A DNA stretch of 42,007 nucleotides from Candidatus Terrybacteria bacterium (GTDB taxonomy: Bacteria > Patescibacteriota > Minisyncoccia > UBA9983): positions 1 to 42,007 of the forward strand of contig JACQXW010000010.1 of assembly GCA_016208535.1 (NCBI GenBank), given 5' to 3'. Within the stretch, counting starts at the first letter, position 1. The number at the start of each line of letters is the position of its first letter. The position numbers were made by a program, and so were the translations under genes. This document shows positions 4,761 through 41,885 of this stretch, piece after piece. The notes beneath the pieces were generated by a model, which was given only the letters and a program-made list of their open reading frames with translations, was not told the DNA's origin and searched no databases.

Positions 4761-4768
4761 GGGGGGGG
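4761..4768. repeat. homopolymeric G8 tract
   Basis: gcGGGGGGGGct lies between the TTATCCACA motif and a TATGAA(T) -10-like box. Confidence 0.9.
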
Positions 4769-4860: not shown

Positions 4861-7029
4861 ATGAAAAACATCAAAAAATTATTTATTATCAGTTTATTTT
4901 TAGGTATTTTGGTCGCAGCTGGAGGTTTTGGTTATCAGGCCCAGGCCGCTGGCTTAACTCAAATCCAGATTGACGCCATTCTTGGTCTACTTCGCTCTTT
5001 TGGCGCAGACGCAGCAACAGTTAGCAATGTTCAATCCGCTCTCACAGGCGCGCCAGTTGTTCCTCCAACACCTCCTCCACCTCCTTCAACTACTCCTTCA
5101 ACCGCAGCATGGTGCCATGATTTTTATGTTAATTTAAAGGTTGAAGATTCCGGGAGTGAAGTTGGCGCATTAAAAACTGCTTTAATAAAGGATGGTTTTC
5201 CAATAAATGAAAGTTTAAATTTTAATGAAGAGACTGTCTCAGCAGTCATTGGTTTTCAAGAAAAATACAAAGACGAAATTTTAATTCCCGTAGGCCTTCA
5301 ATATGGAACCGGTTATGTTGGCGCATCAACAAGAGCCAAATTGAATTCGCTTTATGGCTGCCTGATTCCTGTTCCTCCTCCACCGCCGTCAGAAATTACC
5401 ATAATCCCAACTCCAACACCGACACCAATAATAGCAACCACCACTCCCTCCATCACCGTGCTTTCGCCGAACGGAGGGGAGGTGTTTGTACAAGGGCAAA
5501 ATAATACAATTTCGTGGGAATCAAGCAATCTCCCGTCCAATACAACCTATGTTCATCTTGCACTAATATCGGAAACTGCCGGCGAAGTTGGCTTTATTAA
5601 TTATACGAATACAAATGACCCGATCTTAAATTGCGGCTCATACTTATTAAGTGCTAATGGTAATTATAGCTGGGATGGAAAAACCGCATGTAAGAATAGT
5701 CAAAAAGTTAATGTATCAGTTGGAAATTATAAAATCAATGCGAGATTATATTCATGGCCTAATACTAATAATCCAGGAATAGAAATTGCTTTAGATTCCA
5801 GCGACGCGGCGTTCAGTATTGCGGCGGCGACACAATCCTCAATAAAACCCATGATATTTAGAGACATTTTGAAAGTAGAGAGTGTAACTCCGTATGATGT
5901 TGCGAATTTAGGTTTTGGTGTCTATCAAGTGAGCGCTCAATATAACTTGGGATCATATCACCAAGGCAAGTGGTATGAAGGATTGAATCCGGGCATCTCG
6001 GGTCCGGTGTGGGTTGAATTTAGTTGGCCAAACCGGCCTGACACTGATGTTCTGTTGCAAGACGAAAATGGTCTTAGCCGAAAAATTTATCTTCCCTCTG
6101 CCGGAGCAAATACAACAGGTAATCCATGGTATTATTGGATAGCCGAGGACGGATCAAGTTATTATGCCCATACAAGTCATGGCCCTAGTTGGCCTAATCT
6201 TTCTAGTAGTGAAGCATTAAAACTGGAGCATCTTGCTCAAAAAGCAGCAACCACCACCACCCCCTCCATCACCGTGCTTTCGCCGAACGGCGGGGAGAGT
6301 TGGAGTGTCGGTTCAACACAGACGATTCGTTGGACATCTCAAAATTTGCCTTCCGGGTCAAATTATCAGTTTTCAATTGATCTTCGTAAAAACGATGTCA
6401 ACATTAGAACACTTTTTATTTCAACGGAGAATGATGGCACTCAACAATGGATAGTCCCGGATATTGTTTCAAGTGGAATCGAAACTGGTTTAAAAATCCG
6501 ACTTTCTCTTTATGTAGTAGGAACTGCTAAACCTCTTTATTACGACGACAGCGACGCGGCGTTCAGTATTGCGGCGGCAGGGCCAGCAACAGGGACTGTG
6601 ACTATCGCTTCACCAAATGGCGGAGAAACATATGTCCAGGGGTCAACTTACAATATCAACTGGACAAATTTTGGTTTTGGATCTGATGCCTGGGCGCAAA
6701 TCCAGCTCAGGAATTCAACTGATCCCTCTAAGATGGTTAGTCTTATCGTTAATTCAGTGCCAGCAACGGCAAATACTGGAAGTACATACAGCTGGACTGT
6801 GCCTAATACCATTCCGGCTGGCAAATATCTTATTTGGGTGACAATGGGAAGTGGATTAGATTCTACTGGAAATCGCGTTCTCGGCTCTGATTATTCCGAC
6901 GCGGCGTTCAGCATTGTGGCCACAACCACTTCTGGTTTAGGGGCGGTGCCGGCATCAACACAAACAGCAAGCGCCCTCGGGCCTTTATTAGAGGCGATAA
7001 ACAAACTAATTGAACTCTTGAAAAAATAG
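4861..7029 (+). CDS. secreted/cell-surface protein: signal peptide, peptidoglycan-binding-like domain, Pro/Thr linkers, three repeated beta-sandwich-like modules
   Basis: 722 aa. N-terminal signal MKNIKKLFIISLFLGILVAAGGFGYQAQA. A PG_binding_1-like stretch (GSEVGALKTALIKDGF...GFQEKY). Three modules each start ...SPNGGE..V/QGS...W and end SDAAFSI(A/V)A. Identical 29-mers occur at 5446/6262 and at 5800/6550. Confidence 0.8.
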   Translation: MKNIKKLFIISLFLGILVAAGGFGYQAQAAGLTQIQIDAILGLLRSFGADAATVSNVQSALTGAPVVPPTPPPPPSTTPSTAAWCHDFYVNLKVEDSGSEVGALKTALIKDGFPINESLNFNEETVSAVIGFQEKYKDEILIPVGLQYGTGYVGASTRAKLNSLYGCLIPVPPPPPSEITIIPTPTPTPIIATTTPSITVLSPNGGEVFVQGQNNTISWESSNLPSNTTYVHLALISETAGEVGFINYTNTNDPILNCGSYLLSANGNYSWDGKTACKNSQKVNVSVGNYKINARLYSWPNTNNPGIEIALDSSDAAFSIAAATQSSIKPMIFRDILKVESVTPYDVANLGFGVYQVSAQYNLGSYHQGKWYEGLNPGISGPVWVEFSWPNRPDTDVLLQDENGLSRKIYLPSAGANTTGNPWYYWIAEDGSSYYAHTSHGPSWPNLSSSEALKLEHLAQKAATTTTPSITVLSPNGGESWSVGSTQTIRWTSQNLPSGSNYQFSIDLRKNDVNIRTLFISTENDGTQQWIVPDIVSSGIETGLKIRLSLYVVGTAKPLYYDDSDAAFSIAAAGPATGTVTIASPNGGETYVQGSTYNINWTNFGFGSDAWAQIQLRNSTDPSKMVSLIVNSVPATANTGSTYSWTVPNTIPAGKYLIWVTMGSGLDSTGNRVLGSDYSDAAFSIVATTTSGLGAVPASTQTASALGPLLEAINKLIELLKK

Positions 7030-7040
7030 AAAATTCGCGC

Positions 7041-7069
7041 TTGACTTCTGATTTTTGCTAGTTTACCAT
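7041..7069 (+). promoter_or_regulatory. promoter TTGACT-N17-TACCAT, 7 nt before the ATG
   Basis: ttgacttctgatttttgctagttTACCATaaaaaacATG. Confidence 0.5.
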
Positions 7070-7076
7070 AAAAAAC

Positions 7077-7283
7077 ATGGAAGTTGTTACAATTCCTAAA
7101 AAATTAGAAAAAGAATTAAAAGATGTTTCTCATAATTTTGGCGTTTCTCAAGAGGATTTTTTAACAAATGCCGTTTTATACTATCTCAAGGCCTTGAAAG
7201 ATAAAATTGATTTAAAAAAGGAATTAGAAATGTGGGCTAATGCCAGTGAGAAAGATTTTCTTAAATTTGAAAAGAGTTTATGA
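7077..7283 (+). CDS. antitoxin of the MazEF/PemIK-type pair
   Basis: 68-aa ORF with an ATGA overlap onto the downstream PemK/MazF-like toxin. Confidence 0.6.
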   Translation: MEVVTIPKKLEKELKDVSHNFGVSQEDFLTNAVLYYLKALKDKIDLKKELEMWANASEKDFLKFEKSL

Positions 7284-7606
7284 AAAAGGGCGATGTTTGT
7301 ATCGTTAATGTGGCTACTGGCGTCGGCCATGAGCAATATGGCGAGAGGCCGGCAATTTTAATTTCAGATACAAAGATAGGTATTGTTATCGTTATACCTT
7401 TGACTTCCAATATGGAAGCCTTAAAATTTCCTTATACTCTAACTATTTTTTCTGATAAACAAAATAATCTTAGTCAAGATTCTGTGGCGCTAATTTTCCA
7501 GATTAGAGCCGTTGATAAATCAAGAATTACAAAAGTTATTGGAAAAATCAGCACAAATTTTCAAAAAAAGATTGACAAGATTCTTAAAGAGGTATTGGTT
7601 TTATAA
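7280..7606 (+). CDS. mazF: PemK/MazF-family mRNA-interferase toxin
   Basis: 108 aa. MKKGDVCIVNV...GHEQYGERPAILISD...VIVIPLTSN fits the PemK/MazF fold signature. Confidence 0.8.
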   Translation: MKKGDVCIVNVATGVGHEQYGERPAILISDTKIGIVIVIPLTSNMEALKFPYTLTIFSDKQNNLSQDSVALIFQIRAVDKSRITKVIGKISTNFQKKIDKILKEVLVL

Positions 7607-18991: not shown

Positions 18992-19661
18992 TTATCCGGG
19001 CAAAATCGCGGCCTCGGTTTTTACTGCTGGCTGCAATTTTTTGTGTTCTTTTTGTCACAACCCGGAATTAGTGGATCCTTTTTTGATGAAAAATCAGCCT
19101 GTATTGTCAGAAAGTGAAATTTTTGAATTTTTAGAAAGCCGAAGAGGGGATTTAGAGGGTGTATGCATTACCGGTGGCGAACCTACTTTGCATAAAGATT
19201 TGGCCGATTTTTTATCAAAGATAAAAAGTTTGGGTTTTAGCGTAAAATTGGATACAAACGGTAGCCATCCGGAGATGCTGGAAAAATTGATTAAAGAAAA
19301 ACTTGTTGATTATATCGCCATGGACATCAAGGCGCCGCTTGAAAGATATGAAGAAATAACAGGGGTGGCGAATTTAGAGAAAATTAAAAAGAGTGTTGAG
19401 TTGATAAAAAATTCCGATATTGATTACGAGTTTAGGACAACGGTTGTGCCAAGATTCCACAGCAAAGAAGATATCATTCAAATCGCCAAAGAAATTTCGT
19501 CTCCAAAGAAGCCGGCGAAAAAATATTTCCTTCAGCAGTTTTATTCCATAAAAACCTTGGACCCGGAATTAAAGAAAGAAAAAGGGTATTCAAAAGAAAT
19601 CCTCGCTGAATTCTGCGAGGCAGTGAAGCCGTACTTTGAGCACTGTGGCGTGCGTTATTGA
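18939..19661 (+). CDS. nrdG: anaerobic RNR activating protein (radical SAM)
   Basis: The CNFLCSFCHN (CxxxCxxC) cluster motif and GGEPTL. It overlaps the nrdD 3' end. The start is 18939 or 18954; the ORF-track start at 18885 is less likely. Confidence 0.9.
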   Translation: MKEKNMLLAGLQKFTLIDYPGKIAASVFTAGCNFLCSFCHNPELVDPFLMKNQPVLSESEIFEFLESRRGDLEGVCITGGEPTLHKDLADFLSKIKSLGFSVKLDTNGSHPEMLEKLIKEKLVDYIAMDIKAPLERYEEITGVANLEKIKKSVELIKNSDIDYEFRTTVVPRFHSKEDIIQIAKEISSPKKPAKKYFLQQFYSIKTLDPELKKEKGYSKEILAEFCEAVKPYFEHCGVRY

Positions 19662-19685
19662 CAAAAAATCTGTTTCGTGTATAAT
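19658..19685 (+). promoter_or_regulatory. near-consensus promoter TTGACA-N16-TATAAT
   Basis: TTGACAaaaaatctgtttcgtgTATAAT. It is followed by a ~60-nt leader with the hairpin TCCCGC-ctt-GCGGGA and an AAGGAG SD. Confidence 0.65.
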
Positions 19686-19749
19686 ACAATTAGTTCTTTT
19701 CAAATCCCGCCTTGCGGGACAAATACCAAATTTTAAGGAGAAAACTGCC

Positions 19750-20256
19750 ATGAAAAAGCAGAACACCTATGATCAGCAGACAGCAAAGTTTATCGCGACG
19801 GTATGCCAGAATATGCCCGAATTACCGGGCGACGTGATGCAGGGATGGATTCAAAACCCGAAAGGCCTCAAGAAATTTCTCAAAGGCCTCTGCCCACCGG
19901 AAACTTCATCAAGTTTCCCTGTCTGGAAAACCGTCACTCTCGGTATTCATAAATCAGTCGATGAATACCGCAAAGCTCTCGAAGCAAACGGATTCAAAAT
20001 AGGCAACTGGGGCGACGACATTCTCGGCAAATCGGCTTTCACCGTGAGCTCCGAAGAAACAGAAGTGGAATTAGTAAAAATGACCGTCGCAGAACTCGGA
20101 TTCAAAGACAGCGCGACCAGGAAAGATATCTACGAGAGAGCCATTGAGTTCGGGCTCAAGCTCTGCCCGAATGAAGTTGGTCCCGCCCTGCGCCTGCAAT
20201 ACACAGATCAGCCAATCCTTGGTCCTTTTTATTTTTTAAAATTTTTGCTAAACTAA
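19750..20256 (+). CDS. N-terminal part of a disrupted gene (candidate DGR target), unknown family
   Basis: The ATG lies 9 nt after AAGGAG. The region looks visibly more G+C-rich than its surroundings. The conserved-looking sequence ...CPNEVGPALRLQYTDQP is followed by low-complexity ILGPFYFLKFLLN and a stop. The ORF-track start at 19636 is rejected. Confidence 0.55.
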   Translation: MKKQNTYDQQTAKFIATVCQNMPELPGDVMQGWIQNPKGLKKFLKGLCPPETSSSFPVWKTVTLGIHKSVDEYRKALEANGFKIGNWGDDILGKSAFTVSSEETEVELVKMTVAELGFKDSATRKDIYERAIEFGLKLCPNEVGPALRLQYTDQPILGPFYFLKFLLN

Positions 20257-20442
20257 ATTTTAGATATTAGATTAATAAATGCCTGCGGTTACGGCTTCAG
20301 GCGATCGAATTCTGAAATCAGTAAAGCAGAGAACGGCATCGGGCACGCTTTATGCCGGAGTTGTTTATTGATTTCAAAAAAATAAAGAAACTTGGTATAA
20401 GGCGCTGGGGCATTAAAGATGCCGTATACGATTCAACTCTAA

Positions 20443-20658
20443 GAGTATTCGAAGAGTGGTGGCATAGATGGCGTCTTATACATTACTGACTCCAATGGCA
20501 ACCTCAATGTGTTTGAAGTGGAACGGAATAGCGATGGCTTATGGCTTAACGGCAACAACGGCAATCCTGACAACTTGTGGAACGCTGACAACCAGTGGGT
20601 TTTCTCTCGCGGCAACTCTCTTTATTTTTTCCCCGCTCTTCGCGGGGTTTTTAATTAA
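20443..20658 (+). other. open frame without start codon: C-terminal fragment of the disrupted gene; Asn-codon-rich VR/TR-like segment
   Basis: Same frame as the 19750 ATG. It reads ...GIDGVLYITDSNGNLNVFEVERNSDGLWLNGNNGNPDNLWNADNQWVFSRGNSLYFF..., with 8 AAC and 4 AAT codons in about 47 codons. Confidence 0.5.
20631..20652 (+). terminator. GC hairpin plus T-run at the end of the VR/TR-like segment
   Basis: CCCCGC-tcttc-GCGGGG followed by TTTTT. The palindrome TTAATTAA that follows supplies the stop codons of both convergent reading frames. Confidence 0.6.
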
Positions 20659-21023
20659 GCAGTTGTTTTTGCCATCCACCCAGTATCCTGCCAATTTCAT
20701 CCAAATATTCAGAAAAGACAATATATTTTTTATTATCCAAAGATTTTATTTCCCAGGAAATTTGCAGAAAAAACTTCAAAAGGTCCAGTTTTGAAATGGC
20801 TTTTTGTATGTACGGAGTTTTTAAGTTTTTATTCAATCGGCTTGCTATAAAAATCAACTCAGCGATTTCTATTATTAAACTATCAATCTTAATTCCCAGC
20901 GTGTAGCGCGAATCTTTCGGAAAGTGCGGAATAAATTCATGCCACAGCTTATATAACGCAATAATACAAATAATTATTGTTAAATTTTGTCGGGGGGGGG
21001 GGCGTACTGGTGAAATTTTTCAT
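20651..21023 (-). pseudogene. avd: Avd-like four-helix-bundle protein (DGR accessory), apparent frameshift in a C11/G11 tract
   Basis: The open frame reads ...LYKLWHEFIPHFPKDSRYTLGIKIDSLIIEIAELIFIASRLNK...KLDLLKFFLQISWEIKSLDNKKYIVFSEYLDEIGRILGGWQKQLLN. The only in-frame start is the TTG at 20857 (68 aa), which would remove the first helices. The ATG at 21023 comes into frame, giving 123 aa, if the homopolymer were 10 nt rather than 11. Confidence 0.55.
20992..21002. repeat. homopolymeric G11 tract
   Basis: gtcGGGGGGGGGGGcgtactgg, 39 nt upstream of the RT ATG and inside the avd 5' region. Confidence 0.9.
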
Positions 21024-21040
21024 ATACTAATAATACGCCC

Positions 21041-22027
21041 ATGATAAACAAATTCCAAACTAAATACGAAGAAATTATCTCTATCGAAAACCTCCTTTCG
21101 GCTTGGGAAGAATTTTTGAAAGGCAAAAGAAACAGAAAAGATGTTCAAGAATTTCAGTTTAATCTGATGGACAACATCCTTGCTCTCCATGGCAATCTCG
21201 CCAGCCGAACTTACAGCCACGGCGGATATAAAGCATTCAAAATCAACGACCCAAAGCCGAGAGATATCCACAAAGCAAGCGTGCGGGACAGATTGTTGCA
21301 TCACGCCATTTACAGGATTTTGTATCCGTATTTTGACAAAACATTCATAGCCGATTCTTTTTCCTGCAGATTAAAAAAGGGCACGCACAAAGCGATAAAC
21401 AGATTCAGAAAATTTGCCTACAAAACCGGCAAAAATGACACCAAAACCTGCTGGATTTTAAAATGCGATATCAAGAAGTTTTTTGCCAACATAGACCACA
21501 AAATTTTAATCAATGTCCTGCGTGAACATATTGTGGACGAAAACTTGATAAAACTTCTCAAAAACATCGTTGAAAGTTTTTCGTCAGCAAGAGATGGCAT
21601 CGGTTTACCATTAGGCAATCTCACTTCGCAACTTTTCGTAAATATTTACATGAACAAATTTGACCAATTTGTAAAACACAAATTGAAAGCGAAATATTAC
21701 ATCAGATATTGCGACGATTTTGTTGTTTTCTTGGAAAGTAAAAATTATGCGCAAAAATTGATTCCGCCCGTCAGGGAATTCCTAAACAAAGAGCTTAAAC
21801 TGGAACTGCATCCCGACAAAATTTCCGTCAAAACTCTGGCTTCCGGCGCCGACTTTCTCGGCTGGATTAATTTTACCGACCATAGAATTTTGAGAACCGC
21901 CACAAAAAGAAAAATATTCAGGAATATCAAGGAAAGGGGAGGTAAGGCGGAAACCGTCCAGTCGTATTTGGGGCTGATTAGGTGGGGGAATACAAGGAAA
22001 TTGCGTAATTTAATTGTAAAGTGTTGA
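21041..22027 (+). CDS. DGR-type reverse transcriptase
   Basis: 328 aa. ...NDPKPRDIHKASVRDRLLHHAIY...KCDIKKFFANIDH...GLPLGNLTSQLFVNIYMNKFDQFVKH...YIRYCDDFVVF...LELHPDKISV...ADFLGW. It carries the LGxxxSQ motif-4 signature and YxDD. Confidence 0.9.
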   Translation: MINKFQTKYEEIISIENLLSAWEEFLKGKRNRKDVQEFQFNLMDNILALHGNLASRTYSHGGYKAFKINDPKPRDIHKASVRDRLLHHAIYRILYPYFDKTFIADSFSCRLKKGTHKAINRFRKFAYKTGKNDTKTCWILKCDIKKFFANIDHKILINVLREHIVDENLIKLLKNIVESFSSARDGIGLPLGNLTSQLFVNIYMNKFDQFVKHKLKAKYYIRYCDDFVVFLESKNYAQKLIPPVREFLNKELKLELHPDKISVKTLASGADFLGWINFTDHRILRTATKRKIFRNIKERGGKAETVQSYLGLIRWGNTRKLRNLIVKC

Positions 22028-22059
22028 CATATTTTTGAGAGGATATATACTGTTAATCA

Positions 22060-24508: not shown

Positions 24509-24580
24509 TTATCCACAGCAACCGAGCACATAGATTATGTGCTCGGTTGACTTGTTTTTAGGAGATATTTATTTTATACT
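24509..24580 (+). promoter_or_regulatory. promoter module copy 1: TTATCCACA - palindrome CCGAGCACA-tagatta-TGTGCTCGG - TTGACT ... TATACT
   Basis: Positions 24509-24560 match 25609-25660 except for the 7-nt palindrome centre. A TATTTT box lies 17 nt after the TTGACT (24547-24552). Alternatively, TTGTTT-N17-TATACT sits 7 nt before the hicB ATG. Confidence 0.6.
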
Positions 24581-24587
24581 GAAATCA

Positions 24588-24842
24588 ATGAAAAAAAGAA
24601 CAGATCAATATTATATAATTTACGAACGAGACGAGAAAAAGGGATATATTGCTTCTGCGCCGGCGATTCCCGGTTGTGTTATATATGGAAAAACCTTAAA
24701 AGAGGCGCATAAAAATATTTATAGTGCCATAAAAGAATGTTTAGAAGTAATCCAAGAATTTAAAGGAAATTTACCAAAAGAAACCATAAAGCCTGAAGTT
24801 ATAAGGAAATTTTCTTTTATAAAAATTCCTGAATATGCCTAA
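24588..24842 (+). CDS. hicB: HicB-family antitoxin
   Basis: Begins at MKKRTDQYYIIYERDEKKGYIASAPAIPGCVIYGKTLKEAHKNIYSAIKECLE (UPF0150/HicB pattern). The ORF-track start at 24537 lies in the promoter palindrome. Confidence 0.75.
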   Translation: MKKRTDQYYIIYERDEKKGYIASAPAIPGCVIYGKTLKEAHKNIYSAIKECLEVIQEFKGNLPKETIKPEVIRKFSFIKIPEYA

Positions 24843-25056
24843 AATTAAGCCGATTGGATACGATGAATTTACAAGAAAATTGATGCGCGCCGGATATGTT
24901 CCAGTAAGAAAAAGCAAACACACCATATATTTTCATCCGCAGAAACAAATAACAATACCATTGCCACATAAACACCAAAAGGATATGTCCAAAGGATTTA
25001 TTCATAAACTCATAAAAGAAATGAAATTATCAACAGAAGAATTTAATCAATTATGA
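24835..25056 (+). CDS. hicA: HicA-family mRNA-interferase toxin
   Basis: 73 aa. MPKIKPIGYDEFTRKLMRAGYVPVRKSKHTIYFHP...ITIPLPHKHQKDMSKGFIHKLIKEM. It overlaps hicB by 8 nt. Confidence 0.8.
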   Translation: MPKIKPIGYDEFTRKLMRAGYVPVRKSKHTIYFHPQKQITIPLPHKHQKDMSKGFIHKLIKEMKLSTEEFNQL

Positions 25057-25608: not shown

Positions 25609-25675
25609 TTATCCACAGCAACCGAGCACATAATCTATGTGCTCGGTTGACTTGTTTTTAAGTCAAGTATATAAT
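25609..25675 (+). promoter_or_regulatory. promoter module copy 2 (23S-5S rRNA leader): TTATCCACA - palindrome CCGAGCACA-taatcta-TGTGCTCGG - TTGACT-N17-TATAAT
   Basis: Consensus TTGACT (25647-25652) and TATAAT (25670-25675). The leader contains a weak boxA-like GCTCTGTTTTAAC at about 25731. Confidence 0.7.
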
Positions 25676-25920: not shown

Positions 25921-29358
<3,438 letters not shown>

Positions 29359-29431
29359 TCCTATTAGGAAATTTGGATATCTGCCCTGTCGCTCGCGAGC
29401 GACAGGGTCTGTAAAATAGAGCCCGGAATTT

Positions 29432-29531
29432 TGGCGGCTTGGCGCCACGGATCCACCCGTTCCCATTTCGAACACGGAAGTGAAACGTGGTAGCGGCGAT
29501 GATACTCAAAAGGGAAAGTAGCTAGCCGCCA
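29432..29531 (+). rRNA. rrf: 5S rRNA (short, about 100 nt)
   Basis: TGGCGGC...CCACCCGTTCCCATTTCGAACACGGAAGTGAAAC...GCCGCCA. The helix IV/V region appears shortened. An outer stem CCCGGAAT/ATTCCGGG plus a T-run follows. Confidence 0.8.
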
Positions 29532-29577
29532 GTATTCCGGGCTTTATTTTTTTCTAAATTATTCTATTATTAATTTA

Positions 29578-36591: not shown

Positions 36592-38074
36592 TAAAATATA
36601 AACTAAATATTACTCGAACCTTGAAAAATGAATATTGATTCATTACGTGCATATTATTTTTTCTTTTGTTCCGTTCGATCCCGCTTTTAGCGGGATTTAT
36701 TTGAGAGTTTGATCCTGGCTCAGGACGAACGCTGGCGGCGTGGAGAAGGCATGCAAGTCATACGGATCAATTTTTGTAGCAATATAAAAATTGGTCAGTG
36801 GCGAACGAGTCAGTAACACGTAGAAACGTACCCAAAAGTCGGGCATAATTCCGCGAAAGCGGGACTAATTCCCGATGGTTCTCGCAAGAGTAAAGGAGTA
36901 ATCCGCTTTTGGATCGGTCTGCGGGCTATCAGCTAGTTGGCGGGGTAAGAGCCCACCAAGGCGATGACGGCTAGGAGGCGTGAGAGCGTGACCTCCGACG
37001 ATGGCACTGCGACACGGGCCATACACCTACGGGTGGCAGCAGTCGAGAGTCTTCCACAATGGGCGAAAGCCTGATGGAGCGACGCCGCGTGAATGATGAA
37101 GGACTTCGGTCTGTAAAGTTCTTTTATCTATGAAAAATCTTACCCGCCTTTGGCGGGTGAAATGATATTAGTAGATGAATAAGGGGTTGCTAAACTCGTG
37201 CCAGCAGCAGCGGTAAGACGAGTACCCCAAGCGTTGTCCGGAATTACTGGGCGTAAAGGGTGTGTAGGGGGTTGAGTTAGTCTTGTTTTAAATATTCCGG
37301 CTTAACCGGAAAAATGAACAGGAAACGGCTTAACTTGGAGGATGTGAGAGGTATGCGGAACTCATGGTGTAGGGGTGAAATCCGTTGATATCATGGGGAA
37401 CACCAAAGGCGAAGGCAGCATACTGGCGCATTCCTGACCCTGAAACACGAAAGCGTGGGCATAAAAAAGGATTAGATACCCTTGTATTCCACGCCCTAAA
37501 CGATGTTCTCTAGCTTTCCGAAGTATCGACCCTTTGGGAGGCGAAGCTAACGCGTTAAGAGAACCGCCTGGGAAGTACGAGCGCAAGCTTAAAACTCAAA
37601 GGAATAGACGGGGACTTGCACAAGCGGTGGATCATGTGGTTTAATTCGACGATAAACGAAGAACCTTACCAGGGCTTGAAACCTAATCGAATATCAGAGG
37701 AAACTTTGATAGTTCTCACAAGGAACGGTTGGGCAGGTGATGCATGGCTGTTGTCAGTTCGTGGTTTGAATTGTTCCCTTAAGTGGGGCAACGAACGCAA
37801 CCCTTGTTGCCTGTTACAAGTGTCAGGCAAGACTGCCCCGTTATACGGGGAGGAAGGAGAGGACGACACCAAGTCAGCATGTCCCTTTGACGTCCTGGGC
37901 TACACACATGATACAATGGGGCCGACAATGGGTCGCAAAGCCGAAAGGCGGAGCAAACCCCACCAAACGGTCTCTCAGTTCGGATTGAGGTCTGCAACTC
38001 GACCTCATGAAGTTGGAATCGCTAGTAATCGCGGGTCAGCTATACCGCGGTGAATACGTTCTCAAGTCTTGTAC

Positions 38075-38916
38075 TCGGGTCGCTGTGCGATCCTATAAAT
38101 TAGTCCGTTAAAATCGGGCCAGAAAGAGCGCAATTTTCTGAAGCAAAATTGCAGGTCTATCCCCGCGAGGGGACGACCGAAGGGCGAAATTAGCGTTTCG
38201 TAGCTTGAATAACAGTTGTGGCGTGGTATATTGGTTATCCTTCGAGTACCAGGAGAAGCCATTGCGTTAAAAAAAGTATACTACGTGTAGTGTTATCGAG
38301 ATGCGAAAGAAATGTTTATAGGGTTACCACAGGAGATCTTGCATAATTCCTCGATGTTTGCTAACATCGAGAGTATAAGGGCGAGTAATTGTCCTTAAAA
38401 TGTTATGCAAGAAGTCAGCAGAGTTCATAGTACCAAAAAGGCAGATAGACGATTAAATTCTAAATTAAAACTACCTTTTGGGAAGGAACGAATCCAAAGA
38501 AAAAAGTTAAATCCACATTATGTTAGCGGTTTTATTGACGGAGAAGGATCTTTTTCGGTCAGTATCGGGCGTCATAAAACTTTGCGTCGGGGGTTTGAAG
38601 TCAGATGATCGATACGGATGGTATCCTCACGCAAAATACAAAATCACTAGCATATGGGATATGAACAAATACCTTTTTCCTTTTCTTGACAGATATCCTC
38701 TGCAAGCCAAAAAAGCAAAAGTATATAAGCTTTTTAGAGAAATTGTTATAATGGTTTGTAATAAAGAACATTTGAGCGATGGAGGATTCAAGAAAATTGT
38801 AAAACTCCGCGATAAAATTCGGAGTATGGGGAAAAAGGCAAAAACTTTTGGAAACCGCTAGGGTGCGGGAAAACCGCTTGCCCAGTGGTGTGAGATTCGT
38901 CTGAGGCGAAATCTCA
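38075..38916 (+). mobile_element. intron-like insertion in 16S rRNA carrying a degenerate LAGLIDADG homing-endonuclease gene
   Basis: The exon joint restores TCTTGTAC|ATACCGCCCGTCAC (E. coli CTTGTACACACCGCCCGTCAC, about position 1395). Boundaries are good to +/-2 nt. The intron class is not determinable by eye. Confidence 0.7.
38405..38861 (+). pseudogene. LAGLIDADG homing endonuclease, frameshifted/internally deleted
   Basis: ORF 38405-38608 contains YVSGFIDGEGSFSVSIG and ends ...GFEVR*. A second frame (to 38861) continues ...DDRYGWYPHAKYKITS...FLDRYPLQAKKAKVYKLFREIV... Confidence 0.65.
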
Positions 38917-40701: not shown

Positions 40702-41836
40702 GAAAAAATACTTAGGCCTTGTTTTGATTTTTGGAACAGCAGGCGTTGTTTTTTTATCAGGAACAAATTTTATTTTTAAAAAAATCAGCTCGTTTAGTTA
40801 CACTGCCTCGGTAATGGAAAGCGTAGGGCAAGAAGAGCCAGAGCGTCCTGTTCATATATCCACTCCTGACCCGGTGCGCGGAATTTATATGACTAGCTGG
40901 GTGGCTTCAACCAGGGATTGGCGGGAGCAACTGGTAAAATTGGTTGATTCCACAGAACTTAACTCCATTGTTATCGACATAAAAGATTACACAGGCAGAA
41001 TTGCTTTTGAGGTTGCTGATCCGGAATTGCAAAAAATCGGTTCAGTCGAAACTCGCATTGATGATATCAGGGATTTTATAAATCATCTTCATAACAAAAA
41101 TATTTATACCATTGCCAGAATTTCTGTTTTTCAAGACCCTTATTTTGTAAAAATCAGGCCTGATCTTGCGGTAAAAACAAAAAGCGGTTCTGTTTGGAAG
41201 GACAGGAAAGGTTTAACTTGGATCGACCCCTGCGCCAAAGAATACTGGGATTACATTATTAAAATCGCCCGGGAAACAGAAGCAGTCGGCTTTGATGAAT
41301 TGAATTTTGATTACATTCGTTTTGCCTCTGACGGCGATATGAACAACATTGTTTATCCGTTTTGCGAGACAAATGTTTCCAAGGCTGATAATCTGGAGAA
41401 TTTTTTCAAATATCTTTCAGAAAACCTAAGAGACGCAGGAGTGCCTCTTTCTGCCGATTTGTTTGGAATGGTTACCATCAATACCGATGATCTGAATATC
41501 GGCCAAATTTTGGAAAGGGCCGCGCCATATTTTGATTTTATCTGTCCCATGGTTTATCCCTCGCATTACCCGGCGACATTCAACGGCTATAAAAATCCGG
41601 CGTTCTATCCTTATGAAATTATTTTTCATGCCATGGCAAGTTCTTCGGCTCGCTTGATTAGCGCCAGCTCCACCCCGGACAAACTCCGGCCTTGGCTCCA
41701 AGATTTTGATTTGGGCGCGGATTATACGGCAGAAATGGTGCGCAAGGAAAAACAGGCGGTTTATGACGCAGGATTAAAATCATGGTTATTATGGGATCCG
41801 GCAAATAAATATACAAGAGATGCACTTGACAAATAA
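40685..41836 (+). CDS. putative glycoside-hydrolase-like TIM-barrel protein (DUF4015-like), membrane-anchored
   Basis: MKKFFRKKYLGLVLIFG..., then VRGIYMTSWVAS...NSIVIDIKDYTGRIAF...FDELNFDYIRF... The ORF-track start at 40652 is less likely. Confidence 0.55.
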   Translation: MKKFFRKKYLGLVLIFGTAGVVFLSGTNFIFKKISSFSYTASVMESVGQEEPERPVHISTPDPVRGIYMTSWVASTRDWREQLVKLVDSTELNSIVIDIKDYTGRIAFEVADPELQKIGSVETRIDDIRDFINHLHNKNIYTIARISVFQDPYFVKIRPDLAVKTKSGSVWKDRKGLTWIDPCAKEYWDYIIKIARETEAVGFDELNFDYIRFASDGDMNNIVYPFCETNVSKADNLENFFKYLSENLRDAGVPLSADLFGMVTINTDDLNIGQILERAAPYFDFICPMVYPSHYPATFNGYKNPAFYPYEIIFHAMASSSARLISASSTPDKLRPWLQDFDLGADYTAEMVRKEKQAVYDAGLKSWLLWDPANKYTRDALDK

Positions 41837-41885
41837 ATTGTTTTGTGTATAATATAATTGTTCTTTAAAAACCCGCATTAACCCC

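Follow-up and report, generated by a model that had tools for sequence, protein, structure and literature searches.

Is a reverse transcriptase (RT) gene that stands back to back with a small accessory gene, and for which no target repeat is evident, the remnant of a diversifying element or a working element that acts elsewhere? The question is raised by a cassette on a 42,007-nt contig (the window, by which we mean the whole stretch analysed) from a metagenome-assembled genome (MAG) of Candidatus Terrybacteria. The cassette consists of a target gene, a template repeat (TR), avd on the reverse strand and the RT gene, in that order, flanked by nrdDG and rplJL. The element is of a kind already known, a diversity-generating retroelement (DGR) of the candidate phyla radiation (CPR) with the architecture called B3, in a degenerate state: the TR is kept, the variable repeat (VR) has been lost by deletion and the avd frame is broken. 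We consider it quite likely that this chromosomal DGR is a disabled cassette, not a working diversifier.

The RT gene is the open reading frame (ORF) at 21041-22027 on the forward strand, which encodes 328 aa and carries, as a preliminary description of the window had said, GLPLGNLTSQLFVNIYMNKFDQFVKH and YIRYCDDFVVF. It matches RVT_1 at 90 bits, and NCBI names the product a reverse-transcriptase-domain protein. The best match among PDB sequences was 8ub7_A (328 aa; 144.6 bits, E = 3.9e-41, RT residues 8-320), whose sequence carries IGSLTSQLFANVY and YMDD (YMDDIVV); the depositor's name is 'Reverse transcriptase' only, and from its sequence we take it to be the RT (bRT) of the Bordetella phage BPP-1 DGR. 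Group II intron and retron-type RTs in that search reached at most 73 bits (E about 1e-19 for group II). The NCBIfam models for group II, defence-associated (DRT), retron and abortive-infection (Abi) RTs all scored far below their cutoffs, the sub-threshold matches including group_II_RT_mat at 148 bits (cutoff 300) and Drt3a at 86 bits (cutoff 200). With LGNLTSQ and YCDD at the expected motifs, the window RT is therefore closer to 8ub7_A than to group II or retron RTs, as judged by sequence scores rather than by a tree.

The preliminary description had reported no obvious TR/VR pair. The window indeed holds no pair, but it does hold a TR, at 20482-20615, which had been overlooked. The closest relative with genomic context, L001/L002, is a Paceibacterota MAG in which the RT is 80% identical and the cassette DNA 87% identical to those of the window. 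Its target gene (6491-7135, 214 aa) ends in a VR that takes up the last 134 nt of the gene (6998-7131), and its TR lies at 7448-7581; 17 of the 18 mismatches between the two repeats fall on TR adenines, making them a textbook VR/TR pair. The window TR, an adenine-rich stretch next to the RT gene, shares 89% identity with the L001 TR; of the 17 TR adenines at which the L001 VR is mutated, 16 are A in the window as well. Read in the frame of the target it contains seven AAC and four AAT codons and gives …NGNNGNPDNLWNADNQWVFSRG; with every A written as N, it is NTTNCTGNCTCCNNTGGCNNCCTCNNTGTGTTTGNNGTGGNNCGGNNTNGCGNTGGCTTNTGGCTTNNCGGCNNCNNCGGCNNTCCTGNCNNCTTGTGGNNCGCTGNCNNCCNGTGGGTTTTCTCTCGCGGC. The designation of the cassette as a DGR is thus borne out by the full-length match to 8ub7_A, the adjacent Avd homolog and the adenine-specific TR/VR pair of L001. 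The parts of the cassette are as follows.

19658-19685, forward strand: predicted sigma-70-like promoter, TTGACA-16-TATAAT (12/12 consensus match; position conserved in L001)
19750-20256, forward strand: truncated target gene encoding 168 aa, preceded by an AAGGAG Shine-Dalgarno sequence (86% identical to the L001 target over its residues 1-159)
20215-20216, forward strand: deletion junction, about 207 nt gone relative to L001 (alignment A1, columns 587-793; position good to about 2 nt)
20482-20615, forward strand: TR, 134 nt with 37 A (119/134 identical to the L001 TR)
20631-20652, forward strand: GC hairpin CCCCGC-TCTTC-GCGGGG followed by a T run (terminator scan and RNA fold; conserved in L001 and L003)
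20651-20991, reverse strand: avd body, stop codon at 20651-20653 (PF22296 and NF033474 matches; 94% identity to residues 15-128 of L001 Avd)
20992-21002, no strand assigned: G11 homopolymer at the avd leader/body junction, a poly-C on the avd coding strand (Pro codons), 39 nt upstream of the RT ATG
21003-21042, reverse strand: avd leader region with candidate ATGs at 21042 and 21023 (frame analysis; homologous leader in L001)
21041-22027, forward strand: intact DGR RT, 328 aa (LGNLTSQ in motif 4, YCDD at the catalytic site)

The VR is missing because a deletion of about 207 nt in the target gene removed it. The window target (P0126) is 168 aa long, compared with about 205-220 aa in nearly all of the 722 detectable members of its family; it is homologous to the L001 target up to …LRLQYTDQP, where it meets a new stop codon, and it lacks the C-terminal ~55 residues that bear the VR in relatives. 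Pairwise alignment with L001 shows a single clean gap. It takes in ~54 codons at the end of the gene, and with them the entire VR; the stop codon; and, of the hairpin that follows the VR, the 5' arm and the loop. The 225-nt spacer and the TR downstream have been kept. In L001 this hairpin lies just after the VR and folds with z = -4.5; the window retains its 3' arm only, leaving it without the target-recognition elements, the initiation of mutagenic homing (IMH) sequence and a downstream hairpin, expected at the 3' end of a VR. No VR was found on either strand of the window, in which no stretch other than the TR matches any 45 nt of the TR, even with A mismatches ignored. With no acceptor in cis, the cassette therefore cannot diversify anything in cis.

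Searches beyond the window were likewise negative. A scan with the 3' end of the TR (CCNGTGGGTTTTCYYYCGCGGC) of a genome-contig collection to which the source MAG does not belong returned the L001/L002 genome and chance matches only. A translated protein search with the TR, a weak negative since it was a word-index search, gave three ORFs, all of them over TRs of relatives and none from the source MAG. As for what the missing segment would have encoded, an AlphaFold2 model of a full-length member of the target family (predicted local distance difference test score 90.7) indicates that the deletion took away the last four beta-strands. Foldseek returned weak lectin-like PDB matches for this model and nothing in BFVD, so a C-type lectin fold is weakly suggested and is a lead, not a finding. 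The family has no Pfam domain and no evident signal peptide.

The TR itself would probably be supplied by the target transcript. The sigma-70-like promoter precedes the target gene and is likely where the target-TR transcript starts, and the hairpin at 20631-20652, which adjoins the avd stop codon, resembles an intrinsic terminator; because the one precedes the target gene and the other follows the TR, we infer that the TR RNA is likely the 3' part of the target transcript and ends before avd. Folding of the TR RNA gave no structure beyond this terminal hairpin (z = +1.4).

The preliminary description had regarded the reverse orientation of avd as unusual, yet it is the rule for this group. 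Wu et al. (2018, PMC5758913) call the order TR-(avd)-RT, in which avd is reversed, architecture B3 and report it for 90% of CPR DGRs; Roux et al. (2021, PMC8144416) describe a DGR clade, clade 2, that is confined to Patescibacteria. The window has exactly this layout, with the TR upstream, avd reversed, the RT forward and no other accessory gene. All 34 metagenome loci in which a member of the target family accompanies avd or the RT have avd on the minus and the RT on the plus strand, as do 9 of 9 CPR-type loci in IMG/VR, so that every related locus holding both genes agrees; in more distant phage-type DGRs with a detected avd homolog, by contrast, avd is on the RT strand, upstream of the RT. 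Departures of other kinds occur among the relatives: L058 and L060 have a target with VR and a TR (target 293-808, TR 1182-1304) and no avd or RT within 4 kb downstream, and in L037 and L042 each cassette contains two tandem target paralogs.

Peptides from the minus strand between TR and RT match bAvd (PF22296) at 50.2 bits (cutoff 40); the match to NF033474 (DivGenRetAVD), at 60.5 bits, lies under its cutoff of 80, and a comparison of Avd with PDB sequences gave no significant match. The divergent frame that had been proposed at 20651-21023 thus does represent an Avd homolog on the minus strand, but at 373 nt its length is not a multiple of three and it is not one ORF. Neither candidate ATG (21023 or 21042) is in the frame of the avd body, from which the G11 run at 20992-21002 separates both. 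Translation from the ATG at 21042, whose CATG is common to the RT start, gives MGVLLVYEKFHQYAPPPDKI and then a stop, and would join the body only after a -1 shift or with a run of G9 or G12; translation from 21023 gives MKNFTSTPPPPTKF and continues to a stop, and would require a +1 shift or G10 or G13. After the G run, the body offers no in-frame ATG, GTG or TTG before codon 45. In L001, which has G6 at this place, the homologous leader is in frame and Avd is 128 aa long.

Its frame is broken, yet the avd body has a ratio of nonsynonymous to synonymous substitution rates (dN/dS) of 0.06-0.07, and of 0.07 between the window and L003, both of which are out of frame. These values point to strong purifying selection on the avd body, even between out-of-frame members, a sign that avd is still being used.

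The 17-nt distance between the two start codons, also described as unusual, is correct for 21023 and 21041, but divergent starts that lie close together or overlap are the norm in this lineage. The conserved avd start in relatives corresponds to the CAT of CATG (21040-21042) and overlaps the RT ATG by 2 nt. The 5' ends of the two genes overlap in antisense: in most relatives a single stretch of 21 nt reads MKIQLSH for the RT start and, on the other strand, MxQLNFH for the avd leader, and in the subgroup to which the window belongs the RT and avd ATGs share a CATG (21021-21043 in the window; the overlap is also seen in L015, L016, L027 and others). No obvious Shine-Dalgarno sequence precedes RT or avd, in contrast to the target gene with its AAGGAG.

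The G run is not peculiar to the window. Among 43 distinct B3 avd/RT junctions, 31 have a repeat at the same spot, between an ATG leader of 12-19 codons and the Avd body and 20-45 nt upstream of the RT start; 29 of these are G6-G12 and two, of a single lineage, are (TG)8-11, which reads (AC)n on the avd coding strand. L001 has G6, the window G11 and L003 G12 at this position. Related loci totalling 450 kb contain 22 G/C runs of at least 8, of which 21 fall at the avd leader/body junction, and no such run was seen in more distant phage-type DGRs (RT 29-39% identical). Repeat length goes together with frame: an in-frame avd ATG is present at 12 of 16 junctions with no or a short run (for example L097 and L001) versus 3 of 27 with a long repeat, so that 24 of the 27 long repeats are out of frame (Fisher p = 3.6e-5, relatedness ignored).

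In one pair of otherwise identical sequences the repeat differs in length. L188 (at ~500) and L189 (at ~692) come from separate assemblies; their RT proteins are identical and 1400 nt of flank show 0 mismatches, and the sole difference is three TG units, (TG)8 in the former and (TG)11 in the latter. Identical relatives from separately assembled metagenome records, some of which may be re-assemblies of one sample, share their run length (G7 in three, G10 in two, G11 in two and G6 in three), and because these other identical pairs agree, the run-length pattern is not simple assembly noise. One of the out-of-frame lineages is evidently active in nature. Between L050 and L093, the same cassette in different metagenome records, 27 of 1706 positions differ, 25 of them within the VR (L050 1024-1124, compared with L093 and L094), which is natural evidence that members of this target family are still being diversified; the locus has a TTG two codons after the run.

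The repeat sits in or near the 5' coding region of avd and sets its frame, and the pattern fits what may be a slippage-prone switch. The slippage might act on the DNA, on the RNA or at the ribosome, and its usual outcome would be little or no Avd. In its fullest form, this proposal holds that, in a large sub-lineage of Patescibacteria B3 DGRs, the repeat is hypermutable, that its length sets Avd translation, and that slippage in DNA (phase variation), by the ribosome or by RNA polymerase would act as a stochastic ON/OFF or throttle switch on hypermutation, G11 in the window then being the usual OFF state and not a sign of decay. We put this forward tentatively, as a possibility for which we would not yet claim the upper hand. 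The counts neither favour nor weigh against a more specific alternative, programmed +1 frameshifting: for the ATG leader to join the avd body, about 7 junctions are in frame, 13 need +1 and 7-8 need -1, which is indistinguishable from uniform in a rough chi-square comparison, and no conserved stop or rare codon follows the run across loci. We also considered the G run as the spacer between the -35 and -10 elements of an RT promoter and dropped the idea, as no consistent hexamers were apparent by eye across loci.

In intact relatives, the target promoter would drive transcription of the target gene with its 3' VR and then of the TR, until a hairpin terminator ends the transcript. RT and Avd would copy the TR RNA to cDNA, misincorporating opposite adenines, and this cDNA would replace the VR, rewriting the C-terminal surface of a ~210-aa, weakly lectin-like protein. 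In the window, RT and TR are intact, the acceptor site is gone in cis and the avd frame is broken at G11. RT dN/dS against relatives is 0.1-0.2, and the RT, the avd body and the N-terminal part of the target together range from 0.06 to 0.21 against L001 and L003. Because these values are low, any loss of function would be recent relative to the divergence from L001 and L003, and the window cassette was probably disabled recently.

How firmly a disabled DGR is preferred depends on what else could produce such a locus. If the RT came from a group II intron, a retron or a defence (DRT/Abi) system and had a four-helix neighbour by chance, there would be no DGR to disable, and NCBI and NCBIfam do label the protein a group II RT domain. 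However, the group_II_RT_mat and Drt3a scores all lie under their cutoffs, the match to 8ub7_A (taken to be bRT) is twice as strong as that to any group II RT, the locus has neither a maturase nor an intron RNA, Avd and an AAC-rich TR adjoin the RT, and the 80%-identical relative has an adenine-specific TR/VR pair; this last point in effect refutes the idea, to which we give practically no credence. The lesions might instead belong to the assembly, the real genome having an intact VR and an in-frame avd. VR microdiversity disturbs assemblies and could have confused the assembler, a homopolymer of 11 is error-prone and may have been miscalled, and this exact RT occurs on one contig only. Yet the deletion also takes ~30 nt of invariant sequence upstream and ~40 nt downstream of the VR, the similarity at the junction (~3-6 nt) is too short for k-mer collapse, and a collapse of VR onto TR would have lost the TR and the 225-nt spacer, both of which are kept. 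The identical run lengths of identical relatives in separately assembled records speak against miscalling as well, and we regard an artefact as distinctly improbable.

The alternative that deserves most weight is that the DGR works in trans, with RT, TR and Avd (after slippage or recoding) diversifying a VR on another contig while the local target is dead. The preliminary description had left the choice between a decaying element and one with a remote target; with the VR deleted and the TR present, decay is the better supported of the two, and we keep the remote target as the weaker option. Several observations do weigh against a disabled cassette. RT and TR show no decay at all, the TR adenines are kept and all three genes appear to be under purifying selection. 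Separated targets occur: of 39 related target loci flanked on each side by at least 2.5 kb, 5 lack a nearby DGR. Cassettes with two tandem targets, L037 and L042, occur as well. An out-of-frame avd is poor evidence of death when most long-repeat relatives are out of frame and L050 and L093 vary almost only in the VR. The deletion and the G-run length, moreover, are based on one assembly and on 42 kb of genome, and a VR on another contig would make the window RT and TR functional in trans. On the other side stand the lack of any VR within 42 kb, the translated TR search that gave only three ORFs over relatives' TRs (a weak negative, as said) and an avd without an in-frame start. We think action in trans unlikely, and the disabled cassette remains our preferred explanation.

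The setting of the cassette is chromosomal. Upstream lie nrdD and a radical-SAM activase gene, downstream rplJ and rplL, with rRNA genes beyond. Closely related cassettes differ in their surroundings, lying between nrdG and rplJ in the window, inside the ribosomal protein operon in L001 and between pilB-like and pilC-like genes in L003; because these copies occupy different chromosomal contexts, the cassette relocates. The 56 nt at 19658-19713 are 82% identical to 41826-41879, the similarity comprising the consensus TTGACA-16-TATAAT promoter and ~25 nt downstream. We rejected a reading of this pair as a DGR repeat, as it is a shared strong-promoter region, and it may represent a shared strong-promoter or leader module. 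A promoter similar to the TTGACA-16-TATAAT one is present at 22024-22051, ahead of rplJ.

Other features of the window lie apart from the DGR. The rRNA genes (25921-29534 and 36697-38101) are unlinked and in an unusual order, with 23S and 5S first and 16S ~7 kb downstream past protein-coding genes; the 23S gene is 3443 nt long against a model of 2925 positions, and an insertion is probable. About 270 nt downstream of the 16S gene, 38374-38488 matches Rfam group-II-D1D4-1 at 51 bits, above the gathering score; this possible group II intron, or piece of one, has no connection with the DGR RT. Two 52-nt direct repeats (24509-24560 and 25609-25660; 94% identical), each with a palindrome (CAACCGAGCACAT…ATGTGCTCGGTTG), bracket a HicB/HicA toxin-antitoxin pair (24537-25056) and one more ORF. 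The sole other G/C run of at least 8 in the window is a G8 at 4761-4768, which adjoins a GC-rich inverted repeat, lies upstream of a 722-aa ORF with internal repeats and is usable as a control homopolymer for read errors.

By itself the window cassette adds little, being one more CPR DGR. It is a clear example of the death or orphaning of such an element, in which VR and hairpin have been deleted and RT and TR are intact. The junction repeat could matter more, and is likely the only part to surprise a specialist; among the papers searched for DGRs or avd together with homopolymers, frameshifts or simple sequence repeats (SSRs), none connects DGRs to repeats of this sort. As targeted mutators DGRs are costly, and little is known of how bacteria keep them in check. 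A repeat prone to slippage that gates Avd would, if true, be a simple, heritable and reversible control of a DGR. There is also a practical consequence for annotation, in that gene callers truncate or miss avd at repeat-bearing junctions.

Among known systems, the window comes closest to the B3 DGRs of CPR bacteria, with which it shares host group, gene order and strands, and its RT is 60-80% identical to thousands of CPR RTs. As in those elements, the target is small and lacks a Pfam domain and the TR lies just downstream of the target gene; some of them also adjoin ribosomal protein genes (PMC5758913), like the window cassette. The window copy departs from them in that the ~207-nt deletion has left it without a VR and in that the avd frame is disrupted.

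The resemblance to the BPP-1 DGR (mtd-avd-TR-brt, architecture B1) lies in the proteins: the RT aligns over its full length with 8ub7_A and shares the xGxLTSQLF motif and YxDD, the partner belongs to the Avd family, and adenine-specific mutagenesis is seen in the relative L001. The arrangement differs, as the window avd is on the opposite strand, between TR and RT, and a hairpin terminator of its own apparently stops the TR RNA short of avd, which would preclude an avd-TR-spacer-brt transcript. Where the BPP-1 target is a phage tail fibre, that of the window belongs to a family of ~210-aa proteins without an evident signal peptide, for which the modelled lectin-like fold is weakly supported.

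The avd junction, finally, recalls the contingency loci of Campylobacter, Neisseria and Haemophilus, whose poly-G/C tracts are covered by two reviews (PMC11868660, PMC3315296). In both, a homopolymer or dinucleotide repeat lies near the 5' end of the coding region, varies in length among relatives and shifts the frame of the downstream ORF. The junction differs from these loci in that the hosts are CPR bacteria and the gene encodes an accessory protein of targeted hypermutation, not a surface or restriction-modification function, and in that ribosomal or transcriptional slippage on the C run of avd is an equally open alternative to a change in the DNA.

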